Notes: generated from the sequence alone by a model not told the origin. Numbered from the stretch's first letter, positions 41,379-60,026 are shown. The stretch is 64,000 nt of DNA from Acidobacteriota bacterium (GCA_038748685.1 JBCDIS010000003.1:30437-94436); one strand, 5' to 3'. Numbers and translations are program-made.

Positions 41379-41834
41379 TCACTGCGTTTGCTTTTCGATC
41401 TCGGGGGCCGCGTCGCCGGGCCGTAGCTCTCGGCGCAGCCTGGCCAGTTCCGGCTCGACCTCGCCCTCCGGCACCAGAGACCCCAGGATCCGAGCGGCCG
41501 CCGCGTCCTCCCCCAGGGCGACGTGGGCCGCGACGGCTTGGTGGGGAACGGCTGAGCGTCCCTTTCGCAGACTCGTTCCCACAACCTTGCGGAAGCTTTC
41601 GAGGGCATCGCGGTCTCGACCCGCTTCGGCGTGGGCCATCCCTAGACGGTCCCAGGCCCATTGGCTGTCCGGCAGCACCTCCGTCAGCCGGCCGAAGGCC
41701 TCCAGGGCCTGCGAGACGCGGCCTTCCCGAAGGTGCCGGGTCCCATCCCGGTTAAGGGCGGCGACGCTTTCCTGTAGGTGGGGCCGCTGCGCGGCGGGGG
41801 CCTGAGCGATGTTTAAGGTCGAGTGCCGTCTCAT
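41379..41834 (-). CDS. Short TPR-like protein whose first ~21 codons are homologous to the giant-protein N-terminus
   Basis: 151 aa. TPR-like GRVSQALEAFGRLTEVLPDSQWAWDRLGMAHAEAGRDRDALESFRKVV. Starts MRRHST like the gene at 57806. Confidence 0.65.
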   Translation of the reverse strand: MRRHSTLNIAQAPAAQRPHLQESVAALNRDGTRHLREGRVSQALEAFGRLTEVLPDSQWAWDRLGMAHAEAGRDRDALESFRKVVGTSLRKGRSAVPHQAVAAHVALGEDAAAARILGSLVPEGEVEPELARLRRELRPGDAAPEIEKQTQ

Positions 41835-41929
41835 CTGCCGTCTCCCTTGGAGCCTGTCTCGGGGATGGGCCCCAATCTAGGTTGGGGTCCATTACCTTGC
41901 AGGGCGGGACTCGGCAGAAATCTCTCTCA
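41771..41929 (-). repeat. Duplicated ~160-bp leader + 5' coding segment (paralog at 57743-57900; partial copy at 48737-48757)
   Basis: aaggtcgagtg(c/t)cgtctcatctgccgtctcc matches at 30 of 31 nt between 41815-41845 and 57787-57817. Similarity extends ~95 nt upstream and 63 nt downstream of the ATG. Confidence 0.85.
41865..41892. terminator. Hairpin downstream of partner gene 1
   Basis: atgggccccaa-tctagg-ttggggtccat (11 bp, one mismatch). No clear U-tract. Confidence 0.45.
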
Positions 41930-41954
41930 AGAGCTTCGGTCGGTTTGAGCCTCC

Positions 41955-42755
41955 CTATGCAGGGCCCCCATGTCGGACGGGGTAGACGCTAAAGAAGTAA
42001 GTCTGGAGCGTCGGGTCGTAGAAGAGCACCCACGAAGTGAGTACATCGACCGCCGACATCACCTCTCCAAGAAGCTCCCGACCCGTTCGACCTTCGCCTC
42101 CCACCTCCACGAACGTATGGTGGAAAGGTTCGATCATTACCAATCCAAGGGAGAACTCGGTCGACGAGGTCCGATTGATCGCCTTCTCGATCTCATGAAT
42201 GGTTTCCATCACGGTACGGCGGGCCCTGGGAAACTCCAACGACCGATCGAGCAAAGAGACATGCTCGATCCAGTCCCCGCGCTCGTCCCGCGCCTGCTGC
42301 GGTAGCACATGGAGCATGTCGCCATCGCGACGCAGCTCGTAGGCCACACCAGTATTACCGCGCTCGTAGACCGCCAAGAGCTCCTCGACCAGATCGAACC
42401 GGGCGCCGAACCCTCCCTCGATCCGCTGCCGCGGGTAGGAAAAACGGAGGGGCTGTACCCGGGGAATCCTCAGGGGCGGATGGAGACCTTGTGCCACCCG
42501 TTCGACCGCCCCCTGCACCCCGGCCGTCTGATCCTCGAGATCGTCGGGGTGGGACCACCGCGGATCCTCGTAGGTGATCACCCAGCCGTGTCGGTCCGAC
42601 AGATCACGCAGCGCCACCGAAAGGGGCCGCGGCTCCACAATCTCCAAGGTGATCTCGTCCTTCGCCGGCTCGGCCGCTGTGCAAGGGGAGAGGACGACGA
42701 GGCAGGTAAGAGATACGGCAAAGGCTCGAATGAAAGAGGGTTTGGATCGTCCCAT
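41955..42755 (-). CDS. Secreted partner protein 1 (paralog of 50424..51311; possibly tandem STN/N0-like domains)
   Basis: ATG 42755 with AAGGAG RBS, signal peptide. Shares EPRPL...ITYED and SW-x-LFYDP...YFF motifs with the paralog. The fold assignment is inference. Confidence 0.8.
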   Translation of the reverse strand: MGRSKPSFIRAFAVSLTCLVVLSPCTAAEPAKDEITLEIVEPRPLSVALRDLSDRHGWVITYEDPRWSHPDDLEDQTAGVQGAVERVAQGLHPPLRIPRVQPLRFSYPRQRIEGGFGARFDLVEELLAVYERGNTGVAYELRRDGDMLHVLPQQARDERGDWIEHVSLLDRSLEFPRARRTVMETIHEIEKAINRTSSTEFSLGLVMIEPFHHTFVEVGGEGRTGRELLGEVMSAVDVLTSWVLFYDPTLQTYFFSVYPVRHGGPA

Positions 42756-42812
42756 CACAGGCTCCTTGTGCTTGATGAAAACCGAGGCGACTTCGCGCTA
42801 CCCGCGCTCAAG

Positions 42813-45800
42813 TCAGTGGAGGTCCGAGCATCCGAAGTTTCCCGGATCCGCATCTTCGGTATCCCGGCAGACTTGAGTCCAACTATTGCCGCCGAGCACG
42901 ACGACTCGAATGCGAACCGGGTTGGTGCGGTACTCCACGTTGTAGATCGGAGCCGGACAGGACATGCTCATCTTTTGTCTCGCACCCAACTCACAGCCGT
43001 TGGGGTGCCTCGGGCCGTAGACCGTGTTGATCTTTCGATTGATGCCGATCTTGTCGCTCCCGTAGATGTTCGGTACACCGAAGGTGTCCTCCCTTACGGT
43101 CCAGACGCCCCCGGTCACGATGTTGTTGGCATTGAACTCCGGGATGGGTGAACCGGAGTAGTGGCAGCCGTCGTAAAAGGCGCTCCACCGTTCGCTCACC
43201 GTTCGGTTGGCGTAGATCCCATCCTCGGGAAGAACGACCGCGTTGAAGATGGCGGTGTCGACCGACGGCGACTCCCAGAGCTCGTAAAGGCTCACCTCGT
43301 CATTGGCCACGGGACAGGCGATGGCGTCCGCTGAGCAGGCGGCTCCGCTGGAGGCGGTCGCCTGCACTTGGATCGACGCGGAGTCGCGAGCGCTAGTGTT
43401 TTCCGCCAGCCGGATCTCCGCCGAATAGTCCGACAACGACACCGACTCCCCCGGACCGAGGGTGACTTCCCGACTCGCCGGCGCGAAGCTCGCGTCGGGG
43501 GTCCCACCCGTCTTGCTAAGCTCAACCGTGTAGGTGCACGACTCGGTCGATTCATTCCTGATCGTCCCGGTGAGGCCTTCCGTCGCAAAGTACGACGGGT
43601 TGGTATAAGACCGGTCCGGCTGGACCTTGACGCTCTCTAGGGTGGCTGTACAGCGGCACTCGTCTGTGCACACGGGCGTCGGCGTCGTCTTGCCCACTTC
43701 GGGCTCGAAGACGCTGAAGCTCTCCTGAAAATAGAAGCCGTCGAACGTTGTCCCGGTGGCCCGCATCTCGATCGGTTGCTCGCAGCAGTCGGTCTGGGTC
43801 ACCGTCGCGGGGGTGCGGCCTTCCACCGGCGGACCTTGGGCCACCGCTTCGGCGCAGGATCCGCCTGTGATGGTAGTGGTGGTGGTCGTTCCAGAGCTGT
43901 TGGCCGCCGACCCGGCGCCGGTGCAGTAGTTGACCTGGATCGCCACACCCGGGGATCCCGGAACTTCCGCCGCAAAGACTCCTTCGAGGCAGAAGACCGG
44001 ATACGTGAAGCCGGTGAAGAAGTCGTACCACCAGGAGATCGTCAGATCGACCCGGAGGTAGAACGACAGGACCAGACCTCCGATGGGGACTTGCTGCCCC
44101 AGGTTCAGGCCCTGGAGGATGGCGTCCCCCTCCGCGCCGGTGTCCGGGTCGAAGAGGATCCCCTCCGTATGGTGGAACTCCACGAGCTGAAAGCGGAACC
44201 GGAACAGCACCAGGGCCAGTCGCTCGGCCTCGGACAGCTCCCCACCCGATTCCAGATCGGTCGAGACGCTACCGCCGGAGAGCCGCCGAAGCATGGCCTC
44301 GTCCATCTTCTGGACCGTGTCCATCGCCTGCCGCAGCTCCGCTTCGTCCAAAGACTCGATGGCGGCCAGCGCCTCCGTTACCTCCGCGTCCGGGGGATCA
44401 TCCCCCGCAGCCAGGGCCTTGAGGCGGGCCTTCAAAGCATCCCCAGGTACCCCTGATAAAGCACCTTCGCTCGGTTCACGGATATCACCCGCCGCCACCG
44501 ACCGCATCTGCATCGGCCGGCCTTGGAGGCGGCTCGCCACCTCCCGCACCGCAGGGGCCTGGAGGTAGATAGAAGGCACCGCCGCCCCCCGCTGAGCGCC
44601 GAGGCGCTCCCGGAGACCCGCCGTGACCTCACGGCTTTCGAGGGTCGAGCGCCCCGCACCCACCACCTGAATCGGTAGCCGTATCTGCTGGCCGTTCTTG
44701 CTCACCACGATCTCCGCCGGTCCGACGCTCGACGGCGCACGGTAGCGGCCGGAAAGGCGGTCGTCCGCCGTATTCACCAGGCTCAGGATCTGCCCGCGGG
44801 TGACGCTCACCGTGGCACCTTGCAGGTTATGACCCACCACCGCCAGCAGGTAGACCTTGCCTGCTTCGGGCTGGCCCGGCGACCACAGGTCCACCAAGGG
44901 CCCCTGGGGCAGCACCCGCAGCGGCTCCGCGTCGGAGCCCTGGCTGTTCTCCGCCACCAGGTTGTGGAAGTCCTCGACGTTAGTGTCCGTAGCGTCCACT
45001 TCCACCCGCATCGACGTCCCCGCGGAATTCACGCTCAGCACCCGAGCCGTCGGGAACGACCTCGGTGCCGCACCTTCCGGCGGATCCACCTGGGCGAAGG
45101 ACACCCCCGTTCCACTGAGGTTCGTGCCGGTTACCGTCACCGTGGTCCTGCGGCCATTGGTGATCCGCTCTGGGGTGATATCCGTGATGTCAGGCTCCCC
45201 CACCACCACCGTGCTCACCGTGCCCGACAGGTTCATCAGGTACGGATTCGGCACCGCCGGATCGTTGTGCCAGATCTTCAGCACCGCCGCGAAGCTGCCC
45301 TCCGTCGACGTATCCAGCCGGGCAGCAATCGTGTCCTGCTGGCCCGGGGCCAAAGGCGAGACCAGCGTCCCAGCCCAGCTGAAGGCGTTGCCCTGGGTGT
45401 TCTGCACCTCCACGTTGGTGGGGGAATGGACCAGGACCAGGTTCCCCGCCCCCGAGGCGGCGGTGTTCTTCACCTCGATGTTCCTGCCCACCAGATTGTT
45501 GGTGCCGCTGTTTGGCTCCACCGAGCCCCAGCTCAACGACCCGTTGTGGGAGATCGGGGCGCCGGAGCCCTCGGACACCGCCATCCGCGGCGGGTCGAGG
45601 GAACCGACGGTCGCCTGGAGGTTGATCCGCAGGGGCCGCGGACGCACCGGATCGCTGTGCCATAGCCTCAGCTGGGCCTCGAAGACCCCCGCCTGGGTGG
45701 TGTCCAGCCGCACCGCGAAGGAATCCTCCTCCCCCGGCTGCAGCGGCGAGTCCAGGACGCCGACGATGCTGAACTGGGCATCCCCGACGATCTCGACATT

Positions 45801-48746
45801 GGACGGCGATCCCTCCAGCACCAGAGGCGAAGCACCCGCCGACGCGCCGTTGCGCACCGTCAGCGGCTCGTCCAGGTGAATGCCGCCGGCCCCCGGGTCC
45901 ACCGTGCCCCAATCGACCACACCGTTGTGGGGAAGCCCCGAGGCTCCGTTGCGCACCTCCAGCTTGGGCAGGGGCCGGTCGGTGGTGCTGAAGTTCAGGT
46001 CGTAGTTCTGCCAGTGCGTCTTGTTGAGGGCGAAGTCCCGAACCCAAAGGGCGATGTCGTTGGCCGGGAACTCACCGAAGCTGGCTTCGGGGCGCACCGT
46101 GAAGGTGACCGTGCGCCGATCGCCGACGAGGGACGTCGCGCAGCCCACCAGGGTCACCGTGCCCGGGTTGTGGGCGGTCGGGTGCTTCGATGCGAAGCCG
46201 CCCCCCTGGCAGGGCACCCGGTCCGCCGCCCACTGGTAGCCCAGGCTCTGGTCGCGCCAGGAGAAGTAGCCCCTGCGGTTGGCGGAGTTGCTGCCTTGGT
46301 GGTTGATCAGCGCCCGCATCTCCCGAACGCCGCTGCCGGTATCCGTCGCCGCGGCGGTGATCCCGTAGCTGGTGCCATCGCCGATGGACCAGTCCAGACC
46401 AGACACCGCCAGGGAGGTTTGCACCGGCTTCGTAGGGTCGACCCGGTACGCTCCGCTCCACGTCCCCACTCGACCGGCGCGGTCGCGGCCGCAGAGATAG
46501 AGGACGTTGTCCCCTTCGGGGGTGTCCAGGCTGTCCCCCGAAGAGAACGCCGTGCCATTGGAGCAAGAGGCGTTGGTGGGGGCGTTCCAACGGTAGCGGG
46601 CCACCGCGAGGCCCGTATTGACGCCGGCCCCCTGGCCGCCGGCGTCGTCCGCGGAGAGGGTCAGGTCCCGATCCCGGTACCAGCCGCTGGAGGCGTTGGT
46701 GGCGGAGACCCGCGGATCGTGGCGATCGATGCGCACGTAGCGCGGATCGTTCCAGGCTCCCCACGTGCCGTTGGTGTTCTTGGCGCGGAACCAGTAGGCC
46801 CGGCGGAAGCCGTCGGAGGGCAGGTTCGTGCCGCTCACCGTGTACGAGGTACCGCCGTCGAGGGTCATGTTGAACTCGCAGCCGGCGAATCCACCGGTCG
46901 AATCTTCGCTGCGACAGATCTGATACCCGTCGATGCCCGAAGGATCCGTCGCCGGGGTGACCGTGGCGACGAAGGCTCCGGTCACCCAACACTGGTCCCC
47001 CTCCACCAGGCCGCAGCTCACCGAGGTGGGTCCGGGGGCTGTGGGGCCGCCGCCGTCGACCCGGTACTGGCCGCTCCACTGCGCCACCCGGCCCACCCGA
47101 TCACGGGCGCAGAGGTAGAGCACGTTGTCCCCCTGGGGGGCCTCCAGGGTCGAGCCGGCGGAAATCTCGGAACCCTGGGAGCAGCCCGAGTTGAGGGGCG
47201 TATTCCACCGGTAGCGGACCCTCAGGAGTCCCGAATTCGCCCCCGCACCGGCGGTCGTATCCGCCGCCGAGACGATCGCCGTGCTGCTGGCGAACCAGTG
47301 GCTCGATGCCCCCGACGCCGAAACGGTGGGGGGATGGCGATCCACCCGCACGAAGCTGGCCCAATTCCACGGCCCCCACTGGCCGGCGTTGTCTCGGGCG
47401 GCCCACCAATAGGAGCGCCGGAAGCCGTCCGACGGCAGATGGCTGCCGCTCACCGTGTAGGACGTCCCCGCGTCGAGGCTCATGTTGTGCTCACAGCCGG
47501 CGAAGCCGCCGCTCGAATCCTGGCTGCGGCACAGCTTGTACGCCGCGATCCCCGAGCCCGCGTCGGTGGCCGGAGTTACGGAGGCGACGAAGCCGCCACC
47601 CACCCAGCAGCTGCCGTCGGAGCTGGTGTGGGCGCAGGGCACCGAGGTGTTGCCCGGCGCGGTGGGGGGTGTGGTGTCCACCCGATATCGGCCATTCCAA
47701 TGTTGCACACGCCCCACCCGATCCCGGGCGCACAGGTACAGGCGATGGTCCCCCTCCGGCGCCGTGAGGGTGGCGCCGGGGCTGGTGACCGTACCGCCGG
47801 TGCAGGTCGAGCCGAGGGCCGAGCCCCAGCGGTAGCGCACCTCCGCGAGACCGGAGTTGGCGGCGGCGCCGGCGGTGGCGTCGGCGGCGGAGATCACCGC
47901 CGTCGAGCTGGACACCCAGTTGGAGGACGTCCCGGAGGCCGACACCGTCGGCCCGTGGCGGTCCACCCGCACGTAGCGGGGGGAATTCCAGACCCCCCAG
48001 TTGCCGACCCTGTCCCGGGCGGCGAACCAGTAGGCGCGCCGGAATCCGTCCGACGGCAGGTGGCTCCCACCAATCGTGTAGGAGGTCCCCGCGTCGTAGC
48101 TGATGTCGTGCTCGCAGCCGGCGAAGCCGCCGGCGGAGTTGTGACTACGGCACAGCCGGTAGGAGCCGACGCCGGAGCCGGCGTCGGTGGCGGGGGTCAC
48201 GGAGACGGAGAAGCTCCCCTGGACCCAGCAGTCGCCCCCCGCGGTGTAGCTGCAGCCGACTTGCGTGGCACCGGGGGCCGTGGGCCCGCGGGTGTCGCCG
48301 TAGACATAGACTTCCGGATTCGCCCCCCAGCTGGTGCAGGCGTTGGCGCCGTCGCAGGCGCTCCAGTAGTAGGCCCTGCGCAGGCCGTCGGAGGGCACGT
48401 GGGATCCGCCAACGGTGAAGGTCGACCCGGTGTTTCCGGAGAGCATGTAGTCGCAGCCCCCCCATCCCGGGGTGTCGTTGCTGCGGCAGATCCTGAAGTG
48501 GTGCGCCCCAGGGGACGACGTCGAGATCGAAAACGACGAGCCGACCCAGCATTTTCCACCCACCACGGCGCCGCAGGACGGCGTCCCCTGGGTGGGCACC
48601 GGCGGCACCGCGGCGACGACCGGGGCCGCCATGACGAGGGCTGCGGCAACGGAGGCCGCCAGCAGAAGCAGCGCCCCCGGGAGGGCCGAGGGGCGCCTTG
48701 GCGCAGGGGGATTCGATCTCGTAGAACGCTTCGGGGGTCGTCGCAT
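42813..48746 (-). CDS. Giant secreted Cys-rich repeat protein, copy 1 (1977 aa)
   Basis: Signal peptide, 3 x ~207-aa FN3-like/Ig-like modules, an Ig-like domain, 2 choice-of-anchor-D/ASH-like domains, 2 IPT/TIG-like domains, an acidic helical linker, a beta-rich core, and a variable C-terminal domain. Confidence 0.9.
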   Translation of the reverse strand: MRRPPKRSTRSNPPAPRRPSALPGALLLLAASVAAALVMAAPVVAAVPPVPTQGTPSCGAVVGGKCWVGSSFSISTSSPGAHHFRICRSNDTPGWGGCDYMLSGNTGSTFTVGGSHVPSDGLRRAYYWSACDGANACTSWGANPEVYVYGDTRGPTAPGATQVGCSYTAGGDCWVQGSFSVSVTPATDAGSGVGSYRLCRSHNSAGGFAGCEHDISYDAGTSYTIGGSHLPSDGFRRAYWFAARDRVGNWGVWNSPRYVRVDRHGPTVSASGTSSNWVSSSTAVISAADATAGAAANSGLAEVRYRWGSALGSTCTGGTVTSPGATLTAPEGDHRLYLCARDRVGRVQHWNGRYRVDTTPPTAPGNTSVPCAHTSSDGSCWVGGGFVASVTPATDAGSGIAAYKLCRSQDSSGGFAGCEHNMSLDAGTSYTVSGSHLPSDGFRRSYWWAARDNAGQWGPWNWASFVRVDRHPPTVSASGASSHWFASSTAIVSAADTTAGAGANSGLLRVRYRWNTPLNSGCSQGSEISAGSTLEAPQGDNVLYLCARDRVGRVAQWSGQYRVDGGGPTAPGPTSVSCGLVEGDQCWVTGAFVATVTPATDPSGIDGYQICRSEDSTGGFAGCEFNMTLDGGTSYTVSGTNLPSDGFRRAYWFRAKNTNGTWGAWNDPRYVRIDRHDPRVSATNASSGWYRDRDLTLSADDAGGQGAGVNTGLAVARYRWNAPTNASCSNGTAFSSGDSLDTPEGDNVLYLCGRDRAGRVGTWSGAYRVDPTKPVQTSLAVSGLDWSIGDGTSYGITAAATDTGSGVREMRALINHQGSNSANRRGYFSWRDQSLGYQWAADRVPCQGGGFASKHPTAHNPGTVTLVGCATSLVGDRRTVTFTVRPEASFGEFPANDIALWVRDFALNKTHWQNYDLNFSTTDRPLPKLEVRNGASGLPHNGVVDWGTVDPGAGGIHLDEPLTVRNGASAGASPLVLEGSPSNVEIVGDAQFSIVGVLDSPLQPGEEDSFAVRLDTTQAGVFEAQLRLWHSDPVRPRPLRINLQATVGSLDPPRMAVSEGSGAPISHNGSLSWGSVEPNSGTNNLVGRNIEVKNTAASGAGNLVLVHSPTNVEVQNTQGNAFSWAGTLVSPLAPGQQDTIAARLDTSTEGSFAAVLKIWHNDPAVPNPYLMNLSGTVSTVVVGEPDITDITPERITNGRRTTVTVTGTNLSGTGVSFAQVDPPEGAAPRSFPTARVLSVNSAGTSMRVEVDATDTNVEDFHNLVAENSQGSDAEPLRVLPQGPLVDLWSPGQPEAGKVYLLAVVGHNLQGATVSVTRGQILSLVNTADDRLSGRYRAPSSVGPAEIVVSKNGQQIRLPIQVVGAGRSTLESREVTAGLRERLGAQRGAAVPSIYLQAPAVREVASRLQGRPMQMRSVAAGDIREPSEGALSGVPGDALKARLKALAAGDDPPDAEVTEALAAIESLDEAELRQAMDTVQKMDEAMLRRLSGGSVSTDLESGGELSEAERLALVLFRFRFQLVEFHHTEGILFDPDTGAEGDAILQGLNLGQQVPIGGLVLSFYLRVDLTISWWYDFFTGFTYPVFCLEGVFAAEVPGSPGVAIQVNYCTGAGSAANSSGTTTTTTITGGSCAEAVAQGPPVEGRTPATVTQTDCCEQPIEMRATGTTFDGFYFQESFSVFEPEVGKTTPTPVCTDECRCTATLESVKVQPDRSYTNPSYFATEGLTGTIRNESTESCTYTVELSKTGGTPDASFAPASREVTLGPGESVSLSDYSAEIRLAENTSARDSASIQVQATASSGAACSADAIACPVANDEVSLYELWESPSVDTAIFNAVVLPEDGIYANRTVSERWSAFYDGCHYSGSPIPEFNANNIVTGGVWTVREDTFGVPNIYGSDKIGINRKINTVYGPRHPNGCELGARQKMSMSCPAPIYNVEYRTNPVRIRVVVLGGNSWTQVCRDTEDADPGNFGCSDLH
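46437..48293 (-). repeat. Three tandem coding repeats of 618-621 bp in giant protein 1
   Basis: Unit boundaries at 48293, 47675, 47054 and 46436. Each unit contains CRS...GGFAGC, LPSDGFRR and C(A/G)RDRxGRV. Confidence 0.92.
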
Positions 48747-48935
48747 CTGCCGTCTCCCTGGGGCTCGGGTCGACCCCGGAGAGCTAGCTGGAGCTCACCC
48801 CGGGGCCCGGACCTAGTTTCGTTTCCCCCCTATGCGGAATCCGGCGACGGGATGTCTCATCTTTGTTCAAGATCCGGCCTGGGGACCGCGGCGCACCCCG
48901 GTGGAGCAGAGGACCGAGGCGCCTTTGGGCCAAAG

Positions 48936-48960
48936 AAAAACCCGGAGCCAGGCTCCGGGT
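48936..48960 (-). terminator. Rho-independent terminator after 48992..50275
   Basis: acccggagcc-a-ggctccgggt with an A5 tract on + (U-tract on -). Confidence 0.8.
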
Positions 48961-48991
48961 CCCAATCTAAAGGCGAAGTCTGCGGACCCGG

Positions 48992-50275: not shown

Positions 50276-50353
50276 GGGTTCCTCCTTTGCTCAAGGCTTC
50301 GGGGCCGTCTGGGGATTGGATGCCGCGAAACGTCCGGTTTTCGACATACCGAA

Positions 50354-50423: not shown

Positions 50424-51311
50424 CTAGTCACCGCCCTTCAGCCGAATGCCCCCTTCTCCGGCTCCGTCGCCGGCGGTCTTCTCGAGCGGATTGACCGCCT
50501 CCACCGGACGCACCGGGGACAGGTTGAAGAAGTACCCGTCCATCGAGGGGTCGTAGAAAAGGCGCCAAGACAGGGGCAACCCTGTCGATTCCAGCGTCCG
50601 GACGAGGACATCCCTAGCGGGCTCATCGGTTGCTCCGGTCACCAGCGTCACACCGACCGCCAATCTTCGGGGAATCAGGCCGAAACTAAGTTTGGCGCCG
50701 GTCTGCTGATGCACGGCGGCCAGGGTGTCCCGGAGGGTCTCCATCACTGAGCGCTCCGCCTCGGGCAGGGTCACCGGCGTATCGAGGAGAGCACCGACCT
50801 CGCCCCAGGAGGCGTCTCGCCCCCGGGTCGAAACCGGAACCACGTGGTAAAGGTCGCCTTGCCCCTCGTAGCGGAAGCGTCCGGCGTTGCCGGCGCGGTC
50901 GTGGGACTCCAGGAGCGCCTCCAGGAGCCCCGGCACGTCGCCTGGACCCAGCGCTTCGGGGAGGTCCACCGAGAGGCTCCCCGGCCGCGGGATCATCACC
51001 CTCGGGGCGCTTCCCCGGGCGTACTGATCCAGATCCTTCCGGACGCTCTCGGTGACGTCCGCCCAATCCCCCTCAAAGGTATAGGGCGCATCCTCGTAAG
51101 TGATGACGACTCCGGTCTGTTCTTGGAGGCGGTCGATGGCCGCCGCCAGGGGTCGCGGCTCGTCTTCGATGGTGAGGGCGGCGCCCGCACTCCGTCCGGA
51201 GTCGGCGGCCGAAACGGCGGCGGAGGTCAGAAGGAGGCAGGCCGCGAGGACGATGTCCCGGGTTCGCCGGAGGAATCCAGAGGGGATTCGAGTTTCGTTG
51301 AGTATCTTCAT
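50424..51311 (-). CDS. Secreted partner protein 2 (paralog of 41955..42755)
   Basis: ATG 9 nt after the giant-gene stop, with the RBS overlapping that stop. Signal peptide, EPRPLAAAIDRL...ITYED, SWRLFYDPSMDGYFF. Confidence 0.82.
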   Translation of the reverse strand: MKILNETRIPSGFLRRTRDIVLAACLLLTSAAVSAADSGRSAGAALTIEDEPRPLAAAIDRLQEQTGVVITYEDAPYTFEGDWADVTESVRKDLDQYARGSAPRVMIPRPGSLSVDLPEALGPGDVPGLLEALLESHDRAGNAGRFRYEGQGDLYHVVPVSTRGRDASWGEVGALLDTPVTLPEAERSVMETLRDTLAAVHQQTGAKLSFGLIPRRLAVGVTLVTGATDEPARDVLVRTLESTGLPLSWRLFYDPSMDGYFFNLSPVRPVEAVNPLEKTAGDGAGEGGIRLKGGD

Positions 51312-51320
51312 CACTTGCCC

Positions 51321-54300
51321 TCAGTTGCGGGTGGGTGTCGTAACGCCGTCACGGGTGACGGCCATGCCGGAAGACCTGACGTCCATGATCACAGTGTGTC
51401 TGGTGTAGATGGGATGGCCCTCCCAAGAGCAGTTCATGCCCATGGCTTGCCGTCCCCTCACCTGGCAGGGTGCCCGACCGCGGAAAACGTAGTATTCGTC
51501 GAACTCCCGACCACCCGCCGTGCCCACCGCGCCAATCTCGTCGGGGAGGTTGAAGAGGTTGGAATCCACAATCTTCCACATCCCGCCCCGGATCCAGTTA
51601 CCGTTGTGGATCCTGTCGATGGCGGATCCCTGGAACCAGCAGCCGTCGACGACATTATCCGCGGCTTCTTCGATGTCACGACCTGTGAAGTCGGGCCCGA
51701 AGGGGGTCACCGCCATGTCGAAGACCGCCAGATCGCCGACGATCTGGGCCCAGCCCCGGAACTCCGTAATCTCATCAATGGGCAGGATGCAGGCCATCTG
51801 CTCGACGTTTCCGCCCATGGTCATGGGCGGCCCACCTCCGGTCTGCTGGGGTCTGGAGGACACCTCGAGCTTGATCTTGGCGTCGTCCCGCGCCGGGGTC
51901 GACGTCGGAACCGAAACCTTGACCCCCAGGTCCTGCTGGACACCAGGTTGTAGGGTGATCTGTCCGGAGGACGGGCTGAAGCTCAGCGTTGGGCTTCCTC
52001 CGCTCTTCGAGACCTCCCAATCGTAGATGCAGGCTTTGTTGGAGGTGTTTTTGATCGTCGCGGTCAGCGCCACGTTGCTGTCACCTGGTTTCAGGATCTT
52101 TTCTTCCTCTAGAACCACTCGACCACCGCATCCGGTGCACTGCTCCGCAGGTCTCGCCGTCCCCGCTTCGGGGTTGTTGACGTTGAAGTTCTGCTGGAAG
52201 AAGAACCCCTGGAAGGTCGTCCCCAAGGCCTGGAGGCCGATGGGCTGCTCGCAGCAGTCGTTCTGGGTCACCGTGGCGAAGCCGCGGCCGTCGATCGGCG
52301 GACCGTCGTCGGCGGCCTCGGCGCAGTCCCCACCGCCGAACGTGGTGCTCGTGGTGGTGCCGGAGCTGTTGGCGCTGCCGCCGAAGCCGGTGCAGTAGTT
52401 CACCTGGATCGCCACGCCGGGGGTGCCGGGGATCTCCGAGGCGAAGATCCCTTCCAGGCAGAAGATCGGGTACGTGAACCCGCTGGTGAAGTCGTACCAC
52501 CAGGAGATCGTCAGATCGACCCGCAGGTAGAACGACAGCACCAGACCGCCGATCCGCACCTGGTCCCCCAGGCCCAGCCCCTGGAGGATCGCATCCCCCT
52601 CGGCGCCGGTGTCCGGATCGAAGAGGATCGCCTCCGTGTGATGGAACTCCACCAGTTTCCAGCGGAACTGGAACAGGATGAAGAACGCACGCTCCACAGC
52701 CGAGAGCTCTCCGTCCTCGAGGTCCGCCGCCCGGATCGCCGCGGCGTCGAGCTTCTGGACCTGCTCCAGGGCCTCCCGGAGCTCCGACTCCTCCATCGAC
52801 TCAATCACCTGGAGCGCCTCCTGGACATCCTCCGGCGGCGGCTCTTCACCCGCCGCCAGCGCCCGGAAACGCGCCTTCAGGGAATCGCCGGGGATCAACA
52901 TCCGGGCACCCTGGCTCGGTTCCTGGATCTCCCCACCCTTGAGGGCGCTCATCTGCATCGGCTGGCCATTGAGGCGGCTCGCTGCCTCCCGCACCGAAGG
53001 CGCCTGGATGTAGACCGAGGGAACCGATGCCGCCTGCTGGGCGCCGAGGCGCTCCTTGAGGCCCGCCGTCACCTCACGGGTTTCGAGGGTCGAACGGCCC
53101 GCACCCACCACCTGGATCGGTAGACGCACCTGCTGGCCGTTCTTGGTCACCACGATCTCCGCCGGGCCCGGGGTCGACGGCGCACGGTAGCGGCCGGAGA
53201 GACGGTCGTCCGCCGTGTTCACCAGGCTCAGCATCTGACCCCGGGTCACGCTCAGGGACGCCCCCTGCAGGTTGTGACCCGCCACCGCCAGCAGGTAGAC
53301 CCTGCCGGTCTCCGGCTGACCCGGCGACCACAGGTCCACCAGCGGGCCCTGGGGCAGCACCCGAAGCGGCTCCGCGTCGGCGCCCTGGCTGTTCTCCGCC
53401 ACCAGGTTGTGGAAGTCCTCGACGTTGGTGTCGGTGGCGTCCACCTCCACCTGCATCGATGTCCCCGCAGGGTTCACGCTCAGCACCCGCGCCGTCGGGA
53501 ACGACCGCGGGGCCGCGCCCTCCGGCGGATCCATCTGGGCGAACGACACCCCCGTTCCGCCGAGGTTCGTACCCCGCACCGTCACCGTGGTCTTGCGGCC
53601 GTTGGTGATCCGCTCCGGGGTGATGTCCGTGATGTCCGGCTCCCCCCCCACCACCGTGCTCACCGTGCCCGATAGGTTCATCAGGTACGGATTCGGCACC
53701 GCCGGATCGTTGTGCCAGATCTTCAGCACCGCCGCGAAGCTGCCCTCCGTCGACGTATTCAGCCGTGCGGCGAAGTTGTCCTGCTGACCCGGGGCCAGGG
53801 GAGAAACCAGCGTCCCCGCCCAGCTGAAGGCGTTGCCCTGGGTGTTCTGCACCTCCACGTTGGTGGGGGAGTGCACCAGGACCAGGTTCCCCGCCCCTGA
53901 AGCGGCGGTGTTCTTCACCACGATGTTCTTACCCACCACGTTGTTGGTGCCGCTGTTCGGCTCCACCGAACCCCAGCTCAACGAGCCGCTATGGGAAATC
54001 GGGGGATTCGACCCGTTGCGCACCTCCAGCCGCGGCGGGTCGGTGGACTCCACCGTCGCCCTCAGGTTGATGCGCAGGGGCAGCGGACGGTTCGGGTCGC
54101 TGTGCCAGATCTGGATCTGACCGTTGAAGGTCCCCGCCTGCGCGGTGTTCAGCCGCACCACAAAGGTGTCCTGCTGACCCGGCTGCAGGGGCGAGTCCAG
54201 GGTCCCGGAGAGGCTGAACCTCGAAGAGCCCGTGATCTGGACGTTGGACGGGGTTCCCACCAGGATCAGCGGCGAGGAGCCCGCCGGCGCCGCGTTGCGC

Positions 54301-57300
54301 ACCGTCAGGGTCCTCGGCACCTGGCCGCCGCCGCCGGAACCCTGCTCCACCGTCCCCCAGTTCACATTGCCGTTGTGGGGCAGGGCGGAGCCGCCGTCGA
54401 GCACCATGAGGATCGGGTCCGGCAGGTCGACGGAGCTGAAGTTCAGGTCGTAGTTCTGCCAGTTGGTGGCGTTGAGCCGGAAGTCCCGGGTCCAGAACGA
54501 GATGTCGTTGGCCGGGTGCTCCCCGAAGCTGTTCTCCGGACGGATCGTGAAGATGACCGTCCGCTGGTTGCCGGCGAGGGACGTCGTGCAGCCGACGAGG
54601 GTCGCCGTGCCCGGGTTGAAGGCGTCCGGCCGCTTCGAGGCGAAGCCGCCCCCCTGGCAGGGCACCTGGTCCGCCGACCACAGGTAGCCGAGGCTCTGGT
54701 CCTGCCACGAGTAGTTGCCCCGCGGATTGCCGGCGTTGGAGCCCTGCAGGTTGATCAGCGCCCGCAGCTCGCGGATACCGCTGCCGGTGTCCGACGCCTT
54801 GGCGGTGATCTGGTAGGTCGATCCGTCGCCGATGGACCACTGCTGGCTCGACACCGTCAGCGAATCCCGCACCGGCTGGGTGTTGTCGACCCGGTAGTTG
54901 CCGGTCCACGTGCCCACCCGGCCCGCGCGGTCGCGGCCGCAGAGGTGGAGCACGTTGCCCCCTTCGGGCACCGTCAGGCTGTCTCCGGAGTTGAAGACGG
55001 TTCCGTTGGTGCAGGTGGCGTTGGTGGGGGCGTTCCACCGGTAGCGGGCCTCCGCCAGGCCGGTGTTGGCCCCGGCGCCGGGGCCGCCGGCGTCGTCGGC
55101 GCTCATCACCAGGGTGCGCTCGGCGAACCACTGGTCCGAGGCGTTGGTGGCCGACACCCGCGGGTTGTGGCGGTCCACCCGCACGTACCGCGGCTGGTTC
55201 CAGGGCCCCCACACGCCGTTGTTGTCCTGGGCGCGGAAGAAGTAGGAGCGGCGGAAACCGTCGCTGGGCAGGTGGCTACCGCTGATGGTGATCGAGGTGC
55301 CGCCGTTCTGGGTCACCGTCGCCTGACAGCCGGCGAAGCCGCCGGCGCTATCGTTGCTACGGCAGACGTTGTAGCCGGCGATGCCGGAGGGATCCGACGA
55401 CGGGGTCACGGTGGCGACGAAGTCCCCCGTCACCCAGCACTCGAAGGGGGGGTCGGTGGTGTACGCGCAGTTCACCGTGGTGGGGCCGGGGGCCGTCGGC
55501 GCGGCGGAATCGACCCGATACTGGCCGTTCCACTGGCCGACCCTTCCGACCCGATCCCGGCCGCACAGGTAGAGGACGTTGTCCCCCGCCGGCACGTTCA
55601 GGGTGGTGCCTGCCGTCACCGCGGTGCCGTTGGTGCAGCCGCCGTTGGTGGGGGCGTTCCACCGGTAGCGCACGTCCGCCAGGCCGGAGTTGGCCCCGGC
55701 GCCGCCGGCCGTGTCGTTAGCCTGGACGGTGGCGGTGCGCTCTTCGAACCATTCCGGCGACGCGTTGGTGGCCGACACCTGGGGATCGTGGCGGTCCACC
55801 CGCACGTACCGGGGCTGGTTCCACGGCCCCCAGGCGCCGCTGTTGTCCTGGGCACGGAAGAAGTAGGAACGGCGGAAGCCGTCGCCGGGCAAATGGCTAC
55901 CGCTGATGGTGATCGAGGTGCCGCCGCTCTGGGTCACCGTCGCCTGACAGCCGGCGAAACCGCCGGCGCTGTCGTTGCTTCGGCAGATGTTGTAGCCGGC
56001 GATGCCGGAGGGATCCGACGCCGGGGTCACGGTGGCGACGAAGTCCCCAGCCACCCAACACTCGGAGGGGATCTCGGTGGAGTACGGACAGCTCACCGTG
56101 GTGGGCCCGGGGGCCGAGGGGGGACCCGCGTCCACCCGATACTGGCCGCTCCAGGAGCCCACCCTACCGGTCCGGTCGCGGGCGCAGAGGTAGAGCACGT
56201 TGTCGCCGGCGGGGGCAGTCAGGGTCGCGCCGGAACTGGTCACCGTGCCGTTGGTGCAGGCGGCGTTGGTGGCCGCGTTCCAGCGGTATCGGATCTCCGC
56301 GAGGCCGGAGTTGGCCGCCGCCCCACCGGTGAGGTCAGCCGCCGAGACCGCGGCCGTGGCGCTTGCCACCCAATCGGCGGACGCCCCCGACGCCGACACC
56401 GTCGGCGCGTTGCGGTCCACCCGCACGTAGCGGGGCTGGTTCCAGGGCCCCCAATTGCCGGCGTTGTCCTGGGCGCGGAAGAAGTAGGAACGGCGGAAGC
56501 CGTCCGACGGCAGATGGGTACCGCTGATGGCGATCGAGGTGCCGCCATCCTGGGTCACCGTCGTGTGACAGCCGGCGAAGCCGCCGGTGGAGTCGTTGCT
56601 GCGGCACACGTTGTAGCGGGCGATCCCCGAGGCGTCCGTCGCCGGGGTCACGCTGGCGGTGAAGTTGCCCGTCACCCAGCACTCGAAGGGTGGGTCGGTG
56701 GAGTACGCGCAGGCCACCGTGGTGTTTCCCGGCGCCGACGGCGGCGCCGTGTCGACCCGATATTGGCCATTCCACTGACTCACCCGGCCTACCCGGTCGC
56801 GGGCGCACACGTAGAGGCGATTGTCCCCTTCAGGAGCGGTCAGCGTGGCGCCGGGGGTGGTGACCGTGCCGTTGGTGCAGGCGCCGTTCAATGCGGCGTT
56901 CCAACGGTAGCGCACCTCCGCGAGGCCCGAATTGGCCGCCCCGCCGCCTGTGGTGTCGGCCGCGGCGATGGTCGCCGTCGCGCCGCCGGTCCACGTCGCG
57001 GACGCCCCCGACGCCGACGCCGTCGGCGCGTAGCGGTCCACCTGGACGTACTTCGGCGAGTTCCAGGGGCCCCAGTTGCCCACCCGATCCTGGGCCCGGA
57101 ACCAGTAGGCGCGGCGGAAGCCGTCGGACGGCAGGTTCGAGCCGCTCACGGTGAACGACGTGCCGCCGGTGAGGGTCATGTTGGTCTCGCAGCCGGCGAA
57201 GCCGCCGCTGGAGTTGTTGCTGCGGCAGATGTGGTAGCCGTCGACCCCGGACAGGGCGTCTACGGCCGCGTTGACGGAGACGGTGAAGTTCCCCTGAACC

Positions 57301-57806
57301 CAGCAGGTACCCCCCGCGGTGTAGCTACAGGCCACCTGGGTGTTGCCCGGCGCCGACGGTCCGCTGGCGTCACGGTAGACGTAGACCTCGGGGTTGTCGG
57401 CCCAGCCGGTGCAGGCGTTGGCGCTGTCGCAGGCGCTCCAATAGTAGGCCCGGCGGAAGCCGTCGGACGGCAGATTGGAGCCGCTCACGGTGTAGGTGGA
57501 ACCGGTGTTGCTCGACATCACCGTGTCGCAGCCCCCCCAGCCGGCGACGTCGTTGCTGCGGCAGATCTTGAAATGGTGGGCCCCAGGGGAGGAGGTGGAG
57601 ATGGAGAAATTGGAGCCGACGTAGCACTTGCCGCCGACCACGGCGCCGCAGGCGGGCGATCCCTGGGTGGGCACCGGAGGCACCGCCGCCGCCGCGGGCA
57701 GGGCCCAGAGGAAGAGCGCCAGGCTTGCGAAAAGCAGCCCGACCCGCAGGTGGGGCCACTGTGGAGCAAAGGGAAAAGCGGTGTCGAAGGTCGAGTGTCG
57801 TCTCAT
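51321..57806 (-). CDS. Giant secreted Cys-rich repeat protein, copy 2 (2161 aa)
   Basis: Start MRRHSTF at 57806 with GGAG RBS. Same domain order as copy 1 but 4 modules. Mature N-terminus nearly the same (VPPVPTQG.P.CGAVVGGKC). Confidence 0.9.
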   Translation of the reverse strand: MRRHSTFDTAFPFAPQWPHLRVGLLFASLALFLWALPAAAAVPPVPTQGSPACGAVVGGKCYVGSNFSISTSSPGAHHFKICRSNDVAGWGGCDTVMSSNTGSTYTVSGSNLPSDGFRRAYYWSACDSANACTGWADNPEVYVYRDASGPSAPGNTQVACSYTAGGTCWVQGNFTVSVNAAVDALSGVDGYHICRSNNSSGGFAGCETNMTLTGGTSFTVSGSNLPSDGFRRAYWFRAQDRVGNWGPWNSPKYVQVDRYAPTASASGASATWTGGATATIAAADTTGGGAANSGLAEVRYRWNAALNGACTNGTVTTPGATLTAPEGDNRLYVCARDRVGRVSQWNGQYRVDTAPPSAPGNTTVACAYSTDPPFECWVTGNFTASVTPATDASGIARYNVCRSNDSTGGFAGCHTTVTQDGGTSIAISGTHLPSDGFRRSYFFRAQDNAGNWGPWNQPRYVRVDRNAPTVSASGASADWVASATAAVSAADLTGGAAANSGLAEIRYRWNAATNAACTNGTVTSSGATLTAPAGDNVLYLCARDRTGRVGSWSGQYRVDAGPPSAPGPTTVSCPYSTEIPSECWVAGDFVATVTPASDPSGIAGYNICRSNDSAGGFAGCQATVTQSGGTSITISGSHLPGDGFRRSYFFRAQDNSGAWGPWNQPRYVRVDRHDPQVSATNASPEWFEERTATVQANDTAGGAGANSGLADVRYRWNAPTNGGCTNGTAVTAGTTLNVPAGDNVLYLCGRDRVGRVGQWNGQYRVDSAAPTAPGPTTVNCAYTTDPPFECWVTGDFVATVTPSSDPSGIAGYNVCRSNDSAGGFAGCQATVTQNGGTSITISGSHLPSDGFRRSYFFRAQDNNGVWGPWNQPRYVRVDRHNPRVSATNASDQWFAERTLVMSADDAGGPGAGANTGLAEARYRWNAPTNATCTNGTVFNSGDSLTVPEGGNVLHLCGRDRAGRVGTWTGNYRVDNTQPVRDSLTVSSQQWSIGDGSTYQITAKASDTGSGIRELRALINLQGSNAGNPRGNYSWQDQSLGYLWSADQVPCQGGGFASKRPDAFNPGTATLVGCTTSLAGNQRTVIFTIRPENSFGEHPANDISFWTRDFRLNATNWQNYDLNFSSVDLPDPILMVLDGGSALPHNGNVNWGTVEQGSGGGGQVPRTLTVRNAAPAGSSPLILVGTPSNVQITGSSRFSLSGTLDSPLQPGQQDTFVVRLNTAQAGTFNGQIQIWHSDPNRPLPLRINLRATVESTDPPRLEVRNGSNPPISHSGSLSWGSVEPNSGTNNVVGKNIVVKNTAASGAGNLVLVHSPTNVEVQNTQGNAFSWAGTLVSPLAPGQQDNFAARLNTSTEGSFAAVLKIWHNDPAVPNPYLMNLSGTVSTVVGGEPDITDITPERITNGRKTTVTVRGTNLGGTGVSFAQMDPPEGAAPRSFPTARVLSVNPAGTSMQVEVDATDTNVEDFHNLVAENSQGADAEPLRVLPQGPLVDLWSPGQPETGRVYLLAVAGHNLQGASLSVTRGQMLSLVNTADDRLSGRYRAPSTPGPAEIVVTKNGQQVRLPIQVVGAGRSTLETREVTAGLKERLGAQQAASVPSVYIQAPSVREAASRLNGQPMQMSALKGGEIQEPSQGARMLIPGDSLKARFRALAAGEEPPPEDVQEALQVIESMEESELREALEQVQKLDAAAIRAADLEDGELSAVERAFFILFQFRWKLVEFHHTEAILFDPDTGAEGDAILQGLGLGDQVRIGGLVLSFYLRVDLTISWWYDFTSGFTYPIFCLEGIFASEIPGTPGVAIQVNYCTGFGGSANSSGTTTSTTFGGGDCAEAADDGPPIDGRGFATVTQNDCCEQPIGLQALGTTFQGFFFQQNFNVNNPEAGTARPAEQCTGCGGRVVLEEEKILKPGDSNVALTATIKNTSNKACIYDWEVSKSGGSPTLSFSPSSGQITLQPGVQQDLGVKVSVPTSTPARDDAKIKLEVSSRPQQTGGGPPMTMGGNVEQMACILPIDEITEFRGWAQIVGDLAVFDMAVTPFGPDFTGRDIEEAADNVVDGCWFQGSAIDRIHNGNWIRGGMWKIVDSNLFNLPDEIGAVGTAGGREFDEYYVFRGRAPCQVRGRQAMGMNCSWEGHPIYTRHTVIMDVRSSGMAVTRDGVTTPTRN
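54885..57368 (-). repeat. Four tandem coding repeats of 618-624 bp in giant protein 2
   Basis: Unit boundaries at 57368, 56750, 56129, 55508 and 54884. Confidence 0.92.
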
Positions 57807-58149
57807 CTGCCGTCTCCATTGGGAGCGTGTCTTTGGGTCGCTTGGAAGCTCGGGAGGTTCTCTTATTTTCAAAGGCGGGATTCGGTGGGAATCTTTCTCA
57901 TGGAGCTCAGGCTGCTCCGGACAACGGGGAACCGCCGAAGCCCGTCGAAGCTGAGATCACCGCCTCCACGACGGAGTGCGGAGCCCTCGGGTGGGGCGCC
58001 ATCCCTACACGCGAAAAGCGGGCCCAAGGTCTCCAGACGCCGTCCCGATCGCCGCAGGGACGGACCCAGGGCACCGGGACAGAATCGAGCCGGGGCCGGG
58101 CACAGGACCTGGATGCGGCCGCCGATCACCTCGGGTAAGATCGGCCACC

Positions 58150-59043
58150 GTGAGTGAGTCACCGGAGGAGACAGGCGGACGCGGGCGCGACGAGGCGGAA
58201 CGCCTCTTCGTCGACCATCTCGCCCTGATCGAGCGCCTGATGCGCTCCGTCGCCCGCCGCAAGGGTCTGCGGGACGACGAGGCGGAAGAGTTCCAGGGCT
58301 GGGCGAAGCTCAAGCTCGTCCAGGGGGACTACCGGATCTTCCGCCGCTACCGCGGCGACAGCTCCCTCGCCGGCTACCTCACGACCGTCCTCCTACGCCT
58401 CGCCCTCGACTACGTGATCCAGGAAAAGGGCAAGTGGCGACCCTCGAAGCGGGCCCAGCGCCAAGGCCGGGTGGCGGTCCAGCTGGAGACCCTCGTGCAC
58501 CGCGACGGCGTGGAGCTGGAGCAGGCGATCGCCATCCTCCGGGGCAACCTCGGCGTCCTCGAAAGCGCCGAAGAGCTGCGCAGGATGGCGGCGGAAATCC
58601 GCCGTACGCCGCAGCGCCGCTTCGAGGGGGAGGAGACGGTGGCGCGGCTGCCCAGCGGAGACCTCGCCGATCGGCGGGTGGACGAGGGGGAGGTTGCGGC
58701 GATCGCCGAACGGGCCGCCCAAGGCCTATCCGCGGCCCTGGGGGAGCTACCCCCGGAGGACCGCCTGATCCTACGCTTGCTCTTCGAGGAGGGGATCCCC
58801 GTGTCCAAGGTCGCCCGCCAGCTGCGGGTCGACCAGCGGCGCCTCTACACCCGCCGAGACGGCATCTTCAGGACCCTACGCCGGGACCTCGAACGCCGCG
58901 GCCTGGACGCCGACGACGTCGCCCAGCTGGTGGGCTGGGGGTGCTGGGCTGACGCCGTCACACCGGCGGCGGACGAAATCGGCAGGGCTGGTCCGTCCCT
59001 TGGAACGGGGAATGGAGCGCAGACGGGAGGACTCCACCGATGA
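58150..59043 (+). CDS. ECF-type sigma-70 factor
   Basis: GTG 58150, 297 aa. Region 2-like LIERLMRSVARR...DEAEEF...YLTTVLLRLALDY and region 4-like ALGELPPEDRLILRLLFEEGIPVSKVARQL...RRLYTR. Long insertion between the two regions. Confidence 0.88.
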   Translation: MSESPEETGGRGRDEAERLFVDHLALIERLMRSVARRKGLRDDEAEEFQGWAKLKLVQGDYRIFRRYRGDSSLAGYLTTVLLRLALDYVIQEKGKWRPSKRAQRQGRVAVQLETLVHRDGVELEQAIAILRGNLGVLESAEELRRMAAEIRRTPQRRFEGEETVARLPSGDLADRRVDEGEVAAIAERAAQGLSAALGELPPEDRLILRLLFEEGIPVSKVARQLRVDQRRLYTRRDGIFRTLRRDLERRGLDADDVAQLVGWGCWADAVTPAADEIGRAGPSLGTGNGAQTGGLHR

Positions 59044-60026
59044 CACATCCGATTCCGAACCCCGACCGGCCGGATCTCGAAGACCTGGCCTCCTTCGTGG
59101 AGGGGCGCCTCGACGGGCCGATGCGCGGGGCCGTCGTCGAGCGGCTGGCGGACGACGGGGACTACTACGAACTATACGTGGAGCTGCTGCGGTTCCAGGA
59201 CGAGGAGGGCATACCGGAAACGCCGGACGCCGACGACGGGGCGGGCGCAGAGGCCGCCGATGTCCCCCAAGCGATCCTTCCCGATCCGGCGGCCCCTCAG
59301 ACCGTCGTGCCGTTCCCGCCGACCCCCGAGGCGCCCAAGCGCCGACGCTGGGCCCCCGTCGCCGGCCTGCTGGCGGCGGCGGGGCTGGCGGGGATCGTCT
59401 TCGCGCCGGCGTTCCTCGGCAGCCCGCCGGAGTTGGGGGCCCTGACCGACGGCCTAGGGGCGAGGGCTGAGGCCCTGGAGATCGGCCCTAGACAAGTGAG
59501 CCGCAGCGGAGGGGGCAGGGCCCTGCGGGACGCGCCCAAGTCCTTTCTCCTGGGAGCTCTCCTCGTCGACCTTCAGCAGGCGGAGGGCGAAGACCCCGAA
59601 ACGCTGGAAAGAGACCCCGCGAGGGATATCCGTGCCTTGGGCTTCGAGGTCGTTCCGGCCGAACCATTTATGGATCGCGAAGGCATCATCGACCCCGTGA
59701 TCGTCCGCTTCGGAATGTGGACCCGCTCCGCCTGGTTCGCCTACGACGCCGGACAGTTCGAGCTGCTCGGGAGCCCCGCCTATCAGAACAGTCTGAGGTG
59801 GCTCCGCCGCAAGCTAGACCGGGAGGACCGCGAGCCTCTGGACGATCTCGTCAACGCATTGAAGAACACCCCGGATCAGGACCTCTCTGACCTGTTCGCC
59901 GGCATTGCGAGTCGCTACGACGCCCAGCTCTACGCTTTGGATGAGGCCCTGGGCCTCCTTGAGGGCGAGCAGGCCGCAGAGGACTCCGGCACAGAAGCGG
60001 CCGGCGACGGTCCCCCCGGCCCCTGA
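59040..60026 (+). CDS. Putative membrane anti-sigma factor (degenerate ZAS-like N-terminus, one TM)
   Basis: ATGA-coupled to the ECF. DLEDLASFVEGRLDG...VVERLADDGDYYE resembles a zf-HC2 helix pair without the ligands. TM WAPVAGLLAAAGLAGIVFA. Confidence 0.7.
   Translation: MTHPIPNPDRPDLEDLASFVEGRLDGPMRGAVVERLADDGDYYELYVELLRFQDEEGIPETPDADDGAGAEAADVPQAILPDPAAPQTVVPFPPTPEAPKRRRWAPVAGLLAAAGLAGIVFAPAFLGSPPELGALTDGLGARAEALEIGPRQVSRSGGGRALRDAPKSFLLGALLVDLQQAEGEDPETLERDPARDIRALGFEVVPAEPFMDREGIIDPVIVRFGMWTRSAWFAYDAGQFELLGSPAYQNSLRWLRRKLDREDREPLDDLVNALKNTPDQDLSDLFAGIASRYDAQLYALDEALGLLEGEQAAEDSGTEAAGDGPPGP

Follow-up and report, generated by a model that had tools for sequence, protein, structure and literature searches.

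We analysed a 64,000-nt stretch from an Acidobacteriota bacterium (GCA_038748685.1, JBCDIS010000003.1:30437-94436; hereafter the window, with positions counted from its first nucleotide). In the region 41,379–60,026, a prediction made from the sequence alone had placed an undescribed exported system, composed of two giant cysteine-rich proteins, each followed by its own secreted partner, beside the genes of an extracytoplasmic function (ECF) sigma factor and its membrane anti-sigma factor. The open reading frame (ORF) map and the translations gave the minus-strand order giant 2, partner 2, a propeller-like protein, giant 1, partner 1 and a tetratricopeptide repeat (TPR) ORF, in agreement with the gene order and sizes predicted. 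The C-terminal domain common to both giants is called the tip. The following features were found.

51321-57806, minus strand: giant 2, 2161 aa counted from the ATG, with a Sec-type signal
51336..51806, minus strand: giant 2 tip, ~157 aa, forming the very C-terminal end (hmmsearch independent E-value (i-E) 4e-55)
50424-51314, minus strand: partner 2, an exported alpha/beta protein of 296 aa
48992-50275, minus strand: propeller-like secreted protein, 427 aa, with a weak PQQ_2 match and the C-terminal end ...FQDGFEGGDWVRW
48932-48963, minus strand: intrinsic terminator of canonical form behind the propeller gene, with a GC stem and then UUUUUCUUU (U-run)
42813-48746, minus strand: giant 1, 1977 aa, with the architecture of giant 2 minus one repeat pair
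42849..43331, minus strand: giant 1 tip (residues 1806-1966), which belongs to the same family but is divergent
41955-42758, minus strand: partner 1, an exported protein of 267 aa
41379-41834, minus strand: TPR ORF, 151 aa, without signal peptide
within ORF 57976-59043, plus strand: ECF-type sigma factor, divergent from giant 2 (TIGR02937 match scoring above its cut-off, E=2.6e-12)
59040-60026, plus strand: putative single-pass anti-sigma factor, 328 aa, with one hydrophobic segment and a start that overlaps the sigma stop

With a GC content of 63-70% and a third-position GC of 0.78-0.91, the ORFs at the locus look like real genes. The TIGR02937 match on the plus strand beside giant 2 bore out the divergent ECF sigma factor at the head of the locus, whose true start is probably the GTG at 58150. 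The predicted membrane anti-sigma factor was recovered in part: the hydrophobic segment and the overlap with the sigma gene were present, but the protein has no Pfam domain, and it was therefore labelled from its position and topology.

Both giants carry Sec-type signals, and the cysteines of their stalks are regularly spaced, with four in each A-type unit and two in each B-type unit (four plus two per repeat pair), which matched the Sec signal and cysteine-rich stalk of the original prediction. Giant 2 contains five A-type and four B-type units, and has one additional ~200-aa repeat relative to giant 1. Its repeats are accompanied by a CIA30-like domain, two choice-of-anchor D domains, two TIG-like domains and a helical linker; toward the C-terminus follow a conserved uncharacterised domain, a Cys-rich linker, an immunoglobulin (Ig)-like domain and the tip. 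In searches of Pfam and NCBIfam, the giants gave two choice-of-anchor D domains, a TIG match and weak OmpL47-type and CIA30 matches, and nothing more at lenient thresholds. Autotransporter, TpsB, RHS and type IX secretion system (T9SS) domains were not found in the giants by either database, as had been anticipated for the autotransporter barrel, TpsB, the RHS core and the T9SS C-terminal domain (CTD). A PDB sequence search with giant 1 returned no meaningful match, and a word-indexed protein search with its C-terminal 600 aa gave no match at all.

The overall identity of giant 1 and giant 2 was 64%, but it was very unevenly distributed. By sliding-window comparison, the identity was 92-96% across giant 1 residues 1090-1340 and dropped to 14-30% past residue ~1690 of giant 1 and residue ~1887 of giant 2 (the last ~290 aa), and the last 160 aa were ~27% identical. 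A conserved core and a divergent tip, as predicted, were thus observed. The same pattern was found at the nucleotide level, where the identity was 0.89-0.92 in the core block and 0.41-0.50 in the tip. As a side observation, the near-identical block at ~44830-45480 (giant 1 residues 1090-1306) and ~53270-53920 (giant 2) showed 89-92% nucleotide identity and a third-position identity of 0.78-0.83, compared with 65-80% and ~0.6 for the stalk outside it. Because both values of the block exceed those elsewhere in the stalk, gene conversion between the two paralogues is suggested there.

The two partners were 31% identical (E=7e-37). They carry export signals, and they start 6 nt past the stop of giant 2 (partner 2) and 54 nt past the stop of giant 1 (partner 1), so that a paralogous secreted partner indeed lies directly behind each giant. 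When 1.84 billion representative proteins were scanned in full by HMMER with both partners as queries, the matches, clustered at 50% identity, formed 2272 clusters (E<=1e-3), of which 1456 passed E<=1e-10. The family members were almost all ~260 aa long, and the exported partner itself is ~230 aa; all of the source names were "hypothetical protein", and the family has no Pfam domain. A PDB sequence search with the partner profiles gave no meaningful match, and a word-indexed search with partner 1 recovered a near-identical copy only. An N-terminal hydrophobic segment was present in 58 of 62 partner representatives. A lipoprotein assignment was considered and rejected, since the Cys of LAAC in partner 2 lies too early in the hydrophobic core and a lipobox occurred in only 3 of the 62. 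The near-invariant motif of the family was RP...TYED...D...H...R...W. The AlphaFold2 model of partner 1 had a predicted local distance difference test (pLDDT) score of 90.5 and consisted of tandem small alpha/beta modules, for which the best Foldseek matches in the PDB were DotD and other N0/POTRA-type modules (~93 residues, E ~0.01). Two proteins, P0085 and P0101, were fusions of two partners. Among these two together with P0015 and P0067, some are tandem double partners and others are fused to an uncharacterised alpha/beta region like that of the upstream protein at locus L001. It was also observed that the closest partner homologue (P0003, at L065 1240-10822) stands alone, divergent from an ECF sigma gene and a Ser/Thr-kinase-TPR gene, and that its neighbourhood includes a LanM-like lanthipeptide synthetase (DUF4135 and LANC_like).

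The tip was first recognised when the genes upstream of the partner at several partner-seeded loci were found to match the last ~160 aa of giant 2. Alignment of the C-termini of these upstream genes with both giants defined a C-terminal domain of ~155 aa. The giant 1 tip was detected at an i-E of 1.2e-51, a value to be read with the fact that this tip was itself part of the hidden Markov model (HMM); the giant 1 tip also matched the tips of L044, L026 and L052 by BLAST. Neither the tip nor the pre-tip region had a Pfam or NCBIfam match even at E<=5, and a tip profile search of PDB sequences gave no meaningful match. A word-indexed search with the tip alignment found 7 matches only, so estimates of the size of the tip family are unreliable. 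The AlphaFold2 model of the giant 2 tip was all-beta (pLDDT 85.7). Across 29 tips, E11, E46, D53, C55, G59, D88, Y105, C113 and Q119 were invariant or near-invariant, and W18, N82, R106 and R151 were also conserved. On the basis of this conservation, the two conserved cysteines probably form one disulfide, and the invariant polar cluster (two E, two D, Q and Y, with N and two R near-invariant) points to an active or binding site.

To describe the distribution of the two families, a partner-seeded genome scan (a 16-sequence alignment subset and the motif GxVITYEDP; 25 loci) and a tip-seeded metagenome scan (37 loci, each searched with the tip and partner HMMs) were used. The partner-seeded loci came from Pyrinomonadaceae, Blastocatellia, Vicinamibacterales, Terriglobales, Bryobacteraceae and Steroidobacteraceae, and the pair of genes was found again in many bacteria of soil. 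Three of the 37 tip-seeded loci had no room downstream of the tip, and in 32 of the remaining 34 the tip gene was directly followed, on its own strand, by a partner. A tip or tip fragment was found upstream of the partner in only 11 of the 25 partner-seeded loci, the others being lone partners among housekeeping genes. The dependence was therefore one-way, in that the tip needs the partner but many partners are found where there is no tip, and the proposal that the two would always be adjacent held from the side of the tip but not from that of the partner. These results demonstrated that the conserved unit is a two-gene cassette, in which the first gene ends in the tip and the exported partner gene lies directly downstream; the two genes are probably co-transcribed. 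Tandem cassettes with fragments were seen at L038 and L058. In a set of 29 cassettes, tip identities varied together with partner identities (Mantel r=0.61; 0 of 2000 permutations gave a value as high).

The tip was always at the extreme C-terminus of its carrier. The N-terminal regions borne by tips were otherwise unrelated and ranged from 130 to 2000 aa, although four loci (L004, L024, L019 and L002) shared a common N-terminal body with differing C-termini. Because the carriers in the tip-seeded loci were 200-850 aa long and none was a giant, the giant could not be retained as part of the conserved module. The window instead holds two copies of the cassette that were duplicated and fused to ~2000-aa Ig-repeat stalks, the giant stalk being particular to this lineage. 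Third-codon positions of the giants retained an identity of only 0.55-0.65 in the stalk and were saturated in the tip, and comparison of tip and partner identities showed that cassette 1 was an outlier relative to all relatives. For these reasons, recent cassette swapping onto a newly duplicated stalk could not be told from an old duplication with faster evolution of the tip. As a separate observation, the tip protein most similar to giant 2 is that of L044 (4744-6438), with 33% identity across 232 aa that take in the Ig-like domain ahead of the tip. It begins with a helical region and contains Thr-rich linkers, and its gene is not accompanied by a partner gene.

When the ORFs of the first 25 loci were clustered all against all, the tip family was the sole neighbour that recurred, and in a Pfam census of 121 flanking genes of 35 loci no family occurred in more than three loci. 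Having no fixed neighbours, the cassette resembles an accessory unit that is complete in itself. A phage or plasmid origin was rejected, as viral contigs and plasmids contained no relatives of tip or partner. Our literature search found no description of either family. Neither maps to a characterised family in Pfam, NCBIfam or the sequences of the PDB, and together with the linkage in 32 of 34 loci this upheld the claim of an undescribed two-gene exported module, for which a role in antagonism, kin recognition or sensing is a prediction.

A related metagenome-assembled genome (MAG), GCA_039196305.1, has the same order of giant 2 tip, partner and propeller as the window, with amino acid identities of 90% for the tip, 93% for the partner and 100% for the propeller N-terminus. 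The propeller gene forms its own transcription unit and keeps the same position in the MAG; its product is a putative associate of the cassette. The propeller protein (48992-50275, minus strand; DGFEGGDW, ...FQDGFEGGDWVRWSMARQ) and an otherwise unrelated secreted TPR+BNR protein (12808-14610, plus strand; ...FRDGFESGGTGAWSSVLP) were observed to share a short C-terminal tail, which may be an unnamed sorting or processing motif. A literature search on GFESGD gave nothing relevant.

Leaders had been predicted ahead of giant 2 and the TPR ORF. Both were confirmed, and a third copy was found before giant 1, so that the ~95-nt leader occurs on the minus strand at 57804-57900 (giant 2), 48744-48859 (giant 1) and 41832-41929 (TPR ORF). 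An exact GGAGACGGCAGATG and an upstream TGAGA.A(N8)CCG..T.CCGC block each occurred exactly three times, ahead of these genes only. The window was scanned for Rfam families and tRNAs without a match; having no Rfam match, the leader is not a known riboswitch. Local co-regulation of the three leader-bearing units is plausible from this arrangement. The first residues of the TPR ORF (MRRHST...) are the same as those of giant 2, and the ORF may be a remnant of the 5' end of a third cassette or a co-regulated gene. Of the predicted terminators and hairpin, only the one after the propeller gene is canonical; the hairpins after both partner genes lack U-tracts, and the partner 1 hairpin was not more stable than shuffled controls (z -0.83). 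A generic terminator scan found 11 against 7.4 expected from shuffles, which was not an enrichment.

The reading that we tentatively favour pairs an effector exported through Sec with a cognate partner that would neutralise it in the periplasm. It was favoured because the tip is linked to the partner in a near-obligate but one-way manner; because both proteins are exported; because partners occur alone, arrayed and fused; because divergence is concentrated in the cassette (27% identity in the tip and 31% in the partner, against 64-96% in the stalk); and because the invariant residues of the tip are enzyme-like or lectin-like. The lone partners, partner fusions and tandem cassettes with fragments resemble the orphan and poly-immunity patterns of polymorphic toxin systems (PMC3482391). 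On the favoured reading, the partner would bind the cognate tip in the periplasm of the producer and keep it inactive, as an immunity protein or an inhibitor, and the tip would act outside the cell, on the envelope of a neighbour or on an extracellular polymer. In the present lineage, the tip would have been grafted onto two paralogous disulfide-stabilised Ig-repeat stalks of ~2000 aa, by which it would be presented far from the cell surface. The giant 2, giant 1 and TPR units with their common leader may be co-regulated, possibly through the adjacent ECF sigma factor.

Several results weigh against this reading. The tip resembles no toxin or enzyme in its sequence or structure, as judged by the PDB profile search and by Foldseek: its model had no match at E<=1e-3 in the PDB and BFVD, and the best hits (E of 0.047, TM-score ~0.3) were generic beta-sandwiches. 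In most loci, it is the N-terminus that varies and the tip that stays constant, opposite to what classical polymorphic toxins show. The motif of the partner shows strong conservation and the partner family is far larger than the tip sample, so that the partner could have a function of its own. Adjacency failed at L055 and, clearly, at L044, where the tip gene is followed by a DsbB-like gene and cytochrome bd genes. Finally, dN/dS (nonsynonymous to synonymous substitution rates) between the window and GCA_039196305.1 was 0.16 (tip) and 0.30 (partner); as both values are below 1, there was no sign of positive selection, and the variation, although concentrated in the cassette, is under purifying selection.

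Some of these results would be expected if the partner acted in the periplasm as a dedicated chaperone, an export factor or a docking factor, for which the C-terminal tip would be the handle and the tip proteins would be adhesins or other cargo. The position of the tip at the extreme C-terminus of unrelated N-termini of 130-2000 aa is the grammar of a sorting or anchoring domain, and the sole structural likeness of the partner is to N0 (DotD/secretin) and POTRA modules, which mediate periplasmic contacts in secretion machines, although these matches span only ~93 residues at E ~0.01. The strong conservation of the partner motif, the giants without a recognisable outer-membrane route, the one clean tip-only locus and a tip unlike known toxins would also fit. 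However, in about half of the partner-seeded loci no tip protein is encoded nearby, and the partner stands alone among housekeeping genes; tandem partner-partner fusions would be unusual for chaperones; and a shared sorting signal normally uses shared machinery rather than one partner per cargo. We regard a chaperone or docking role as rather unlikely, but as the main rival of the favoured reading. If it were true, the cassette would point to an unknown route for displaying very large proteins on the diderm surface.

An improbable reading is surface sensing under ECF control, in which the tip would sense a ligand or contact and the partner, through its first module, which looks STN/N0-like, would relay the signal to the anti-sigma factor and free the sigma factor in a Fec-like manner. 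It draws on the sigma and putative anti-sigma genes that adjoin giant 2 divergently, on the leader common to three units, on the N0-like module of the partner and on the closest partner homologue, P0003, which is also divergent from an ECF sigma gene. Acidobacteriota carry many ECF sigma factors, so both of these adjacencies may have arisen by chance. Among the 121 neighbour genes of 35 cassettes, no sigma or anti-sigma family recurred, the commonest family occurring in 3, and clustering gave no recurrent neighbour except the tip family; ECF control therefore does not belong to the module, contrary to the original prediction. The anti-sigma factor also lacks FecR or any other Pfam domain, and the cassette has no TonB-dependent transducer. 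Large Ig-repeat secreted proteins are common in Acidobacteriota and the stalks bear adhesin-like domains, so it could also be asked whether the window merely holds two tandem paralogous adhesin genes with small secreted neighbours by accident. Chance adjacency is untenable in view of the 32 of 34 independent tip loci and the co-variation of tip and partner, and we consider such an absence of any functional link very improbable.

The effector and neutralising partner reading can be compared with several known systems. Polymorphic toxin-immunity systems have been catalogued, including a Sec/type II secretion system (T2SS) class (Zhang, Aravind et al. 2012, PMC3482391). Like the Sec/T2SS class, the present locus has a multidomain secreted protein with a conserved stalk, a divergent C-terminal domain of ~150 aa and a cognate gene immediately downstream, as well as tandem paralogous cassettes, apparent orphan partners, fragments, partner fusions and a variable context. 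It differs in that the cassette contains no catalogued toxin, pre-toxin, releasing-peptidase or immunity domain; both tips appear to belong to one domain family, unlike the unrelated C-terminal folds of classical polymorphic toxins; the N-terminus varies across genomes; the partner is exported and has a strongly conserved motif; and toxicity is a prediction. Dedicated trafficking domains (TPS, PAAR/VgrG, LXG/WXG, MafB-N and others) were not found in the giants by Pfam or NCBIfam, which left the Sec-type signal only.

Secreted enzymes with periplasmic inhibitors, such as the serralysin AprA with AprI, and the lysozyme inhibitors Ivy, MliC and PliC, offer another parallel. There, too, an exported inhibitor with a signal peptide is encoded beside its target or alone, and a conserved contact motif matches a conserved active site; the present proteins have no sequence or fold relation to them, and no enzymatic activity is known for the tip. 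With the CdiBAI proteins of contact-dependent inhibition (CDI) and two-partner secretion (TPS), the giants share a very long stalk, a variable C-terminus and an adjacent cognate gene, but TPS, FHA and TpsB/CdiB Omp85 barrel domains gave no Pfam or NCBIfam matches in the giants or their neighbours. The TPS domain, FHA repeats, the VENN motif and the TpsB/CdiB barrel gene are all absent, and the partner is exported rather than cytoplasmic. T9SS cargo likewise carries a small beta-sandwich at the extreme C-terminus of proteins of very different sizes; here no CTD model of NCBIfam or Pfam matched, and each cargo has a dedicated adjacent partner. T9SS is not known in Acidobacteriota. Fec-type signalling also places an ECF sigma factor and a membrane anti-sigma factor beside genes of exported proteins, and the partner has an N0/STN-like module, but neither a FecR domain nor, within the cassette, a TonB-dependent transducer is present, and the link to the sigma factor is not conserved; the TonB-dependent receptor at 33789-35969 has Plug and barrel domains only. 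The giants differ from the RTX/LapA adhesins of type I secretion in their N-terminal Sec signal and the lack of RTX matches, and the efflux genes at 25668-32367, 9 kb away, form a resistance-nodulation-division (RND)-type set.

The analysis defines two uncharacterised families, the tip and a partner with more than 2000 clusters at 50% identity, with near-obligate linkage and confident structure models. Acidobacteriota are among the most abundant soil bacteria, and hardly anything is known of their competition and adhesion. If the effector and neutraliser reading were true, the cassette would be a new system of interbacterial competition, possibly with a new enzymatic or binding fold. A broader version of it, which we think unlikely as a whole, would be a widespread, hitherto unrecognised Sec-dependent family of effectors and immunity proteins (or inhibitors) of soil Acidobacteriota and Steroidobacteraceae. 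The effector would have a new fold, and in this lineage it would mediate contact-dependent antagonism through the 2000-aa disulfide-stiffened stalk without T5, T6 or T7 (type V, VI or VII secretion) machines; the partner-only genes, thousands in number, would form a reservoir of orphan immunity across soils.

Three other proteins of the window were observed. On the minus strand, 60063-62345 encodes a 760-aa protein without Pfam match that contains a metzincin-like HELGHALNLAH zinc-binding motif, its gene being convergent with the anti-sigma gene. Also on the minus strand, the 686-aa ORF at 36472-38532 has a coding-like codon bias (third-position GC 0.86) and no Pfam match. In the 926-aa protein encoded at 6128-8908 on the plus strand, an OmpR-type DNA-binding domain (Trans_reg_C) is joined to a long PQQ-like beta-propeller.

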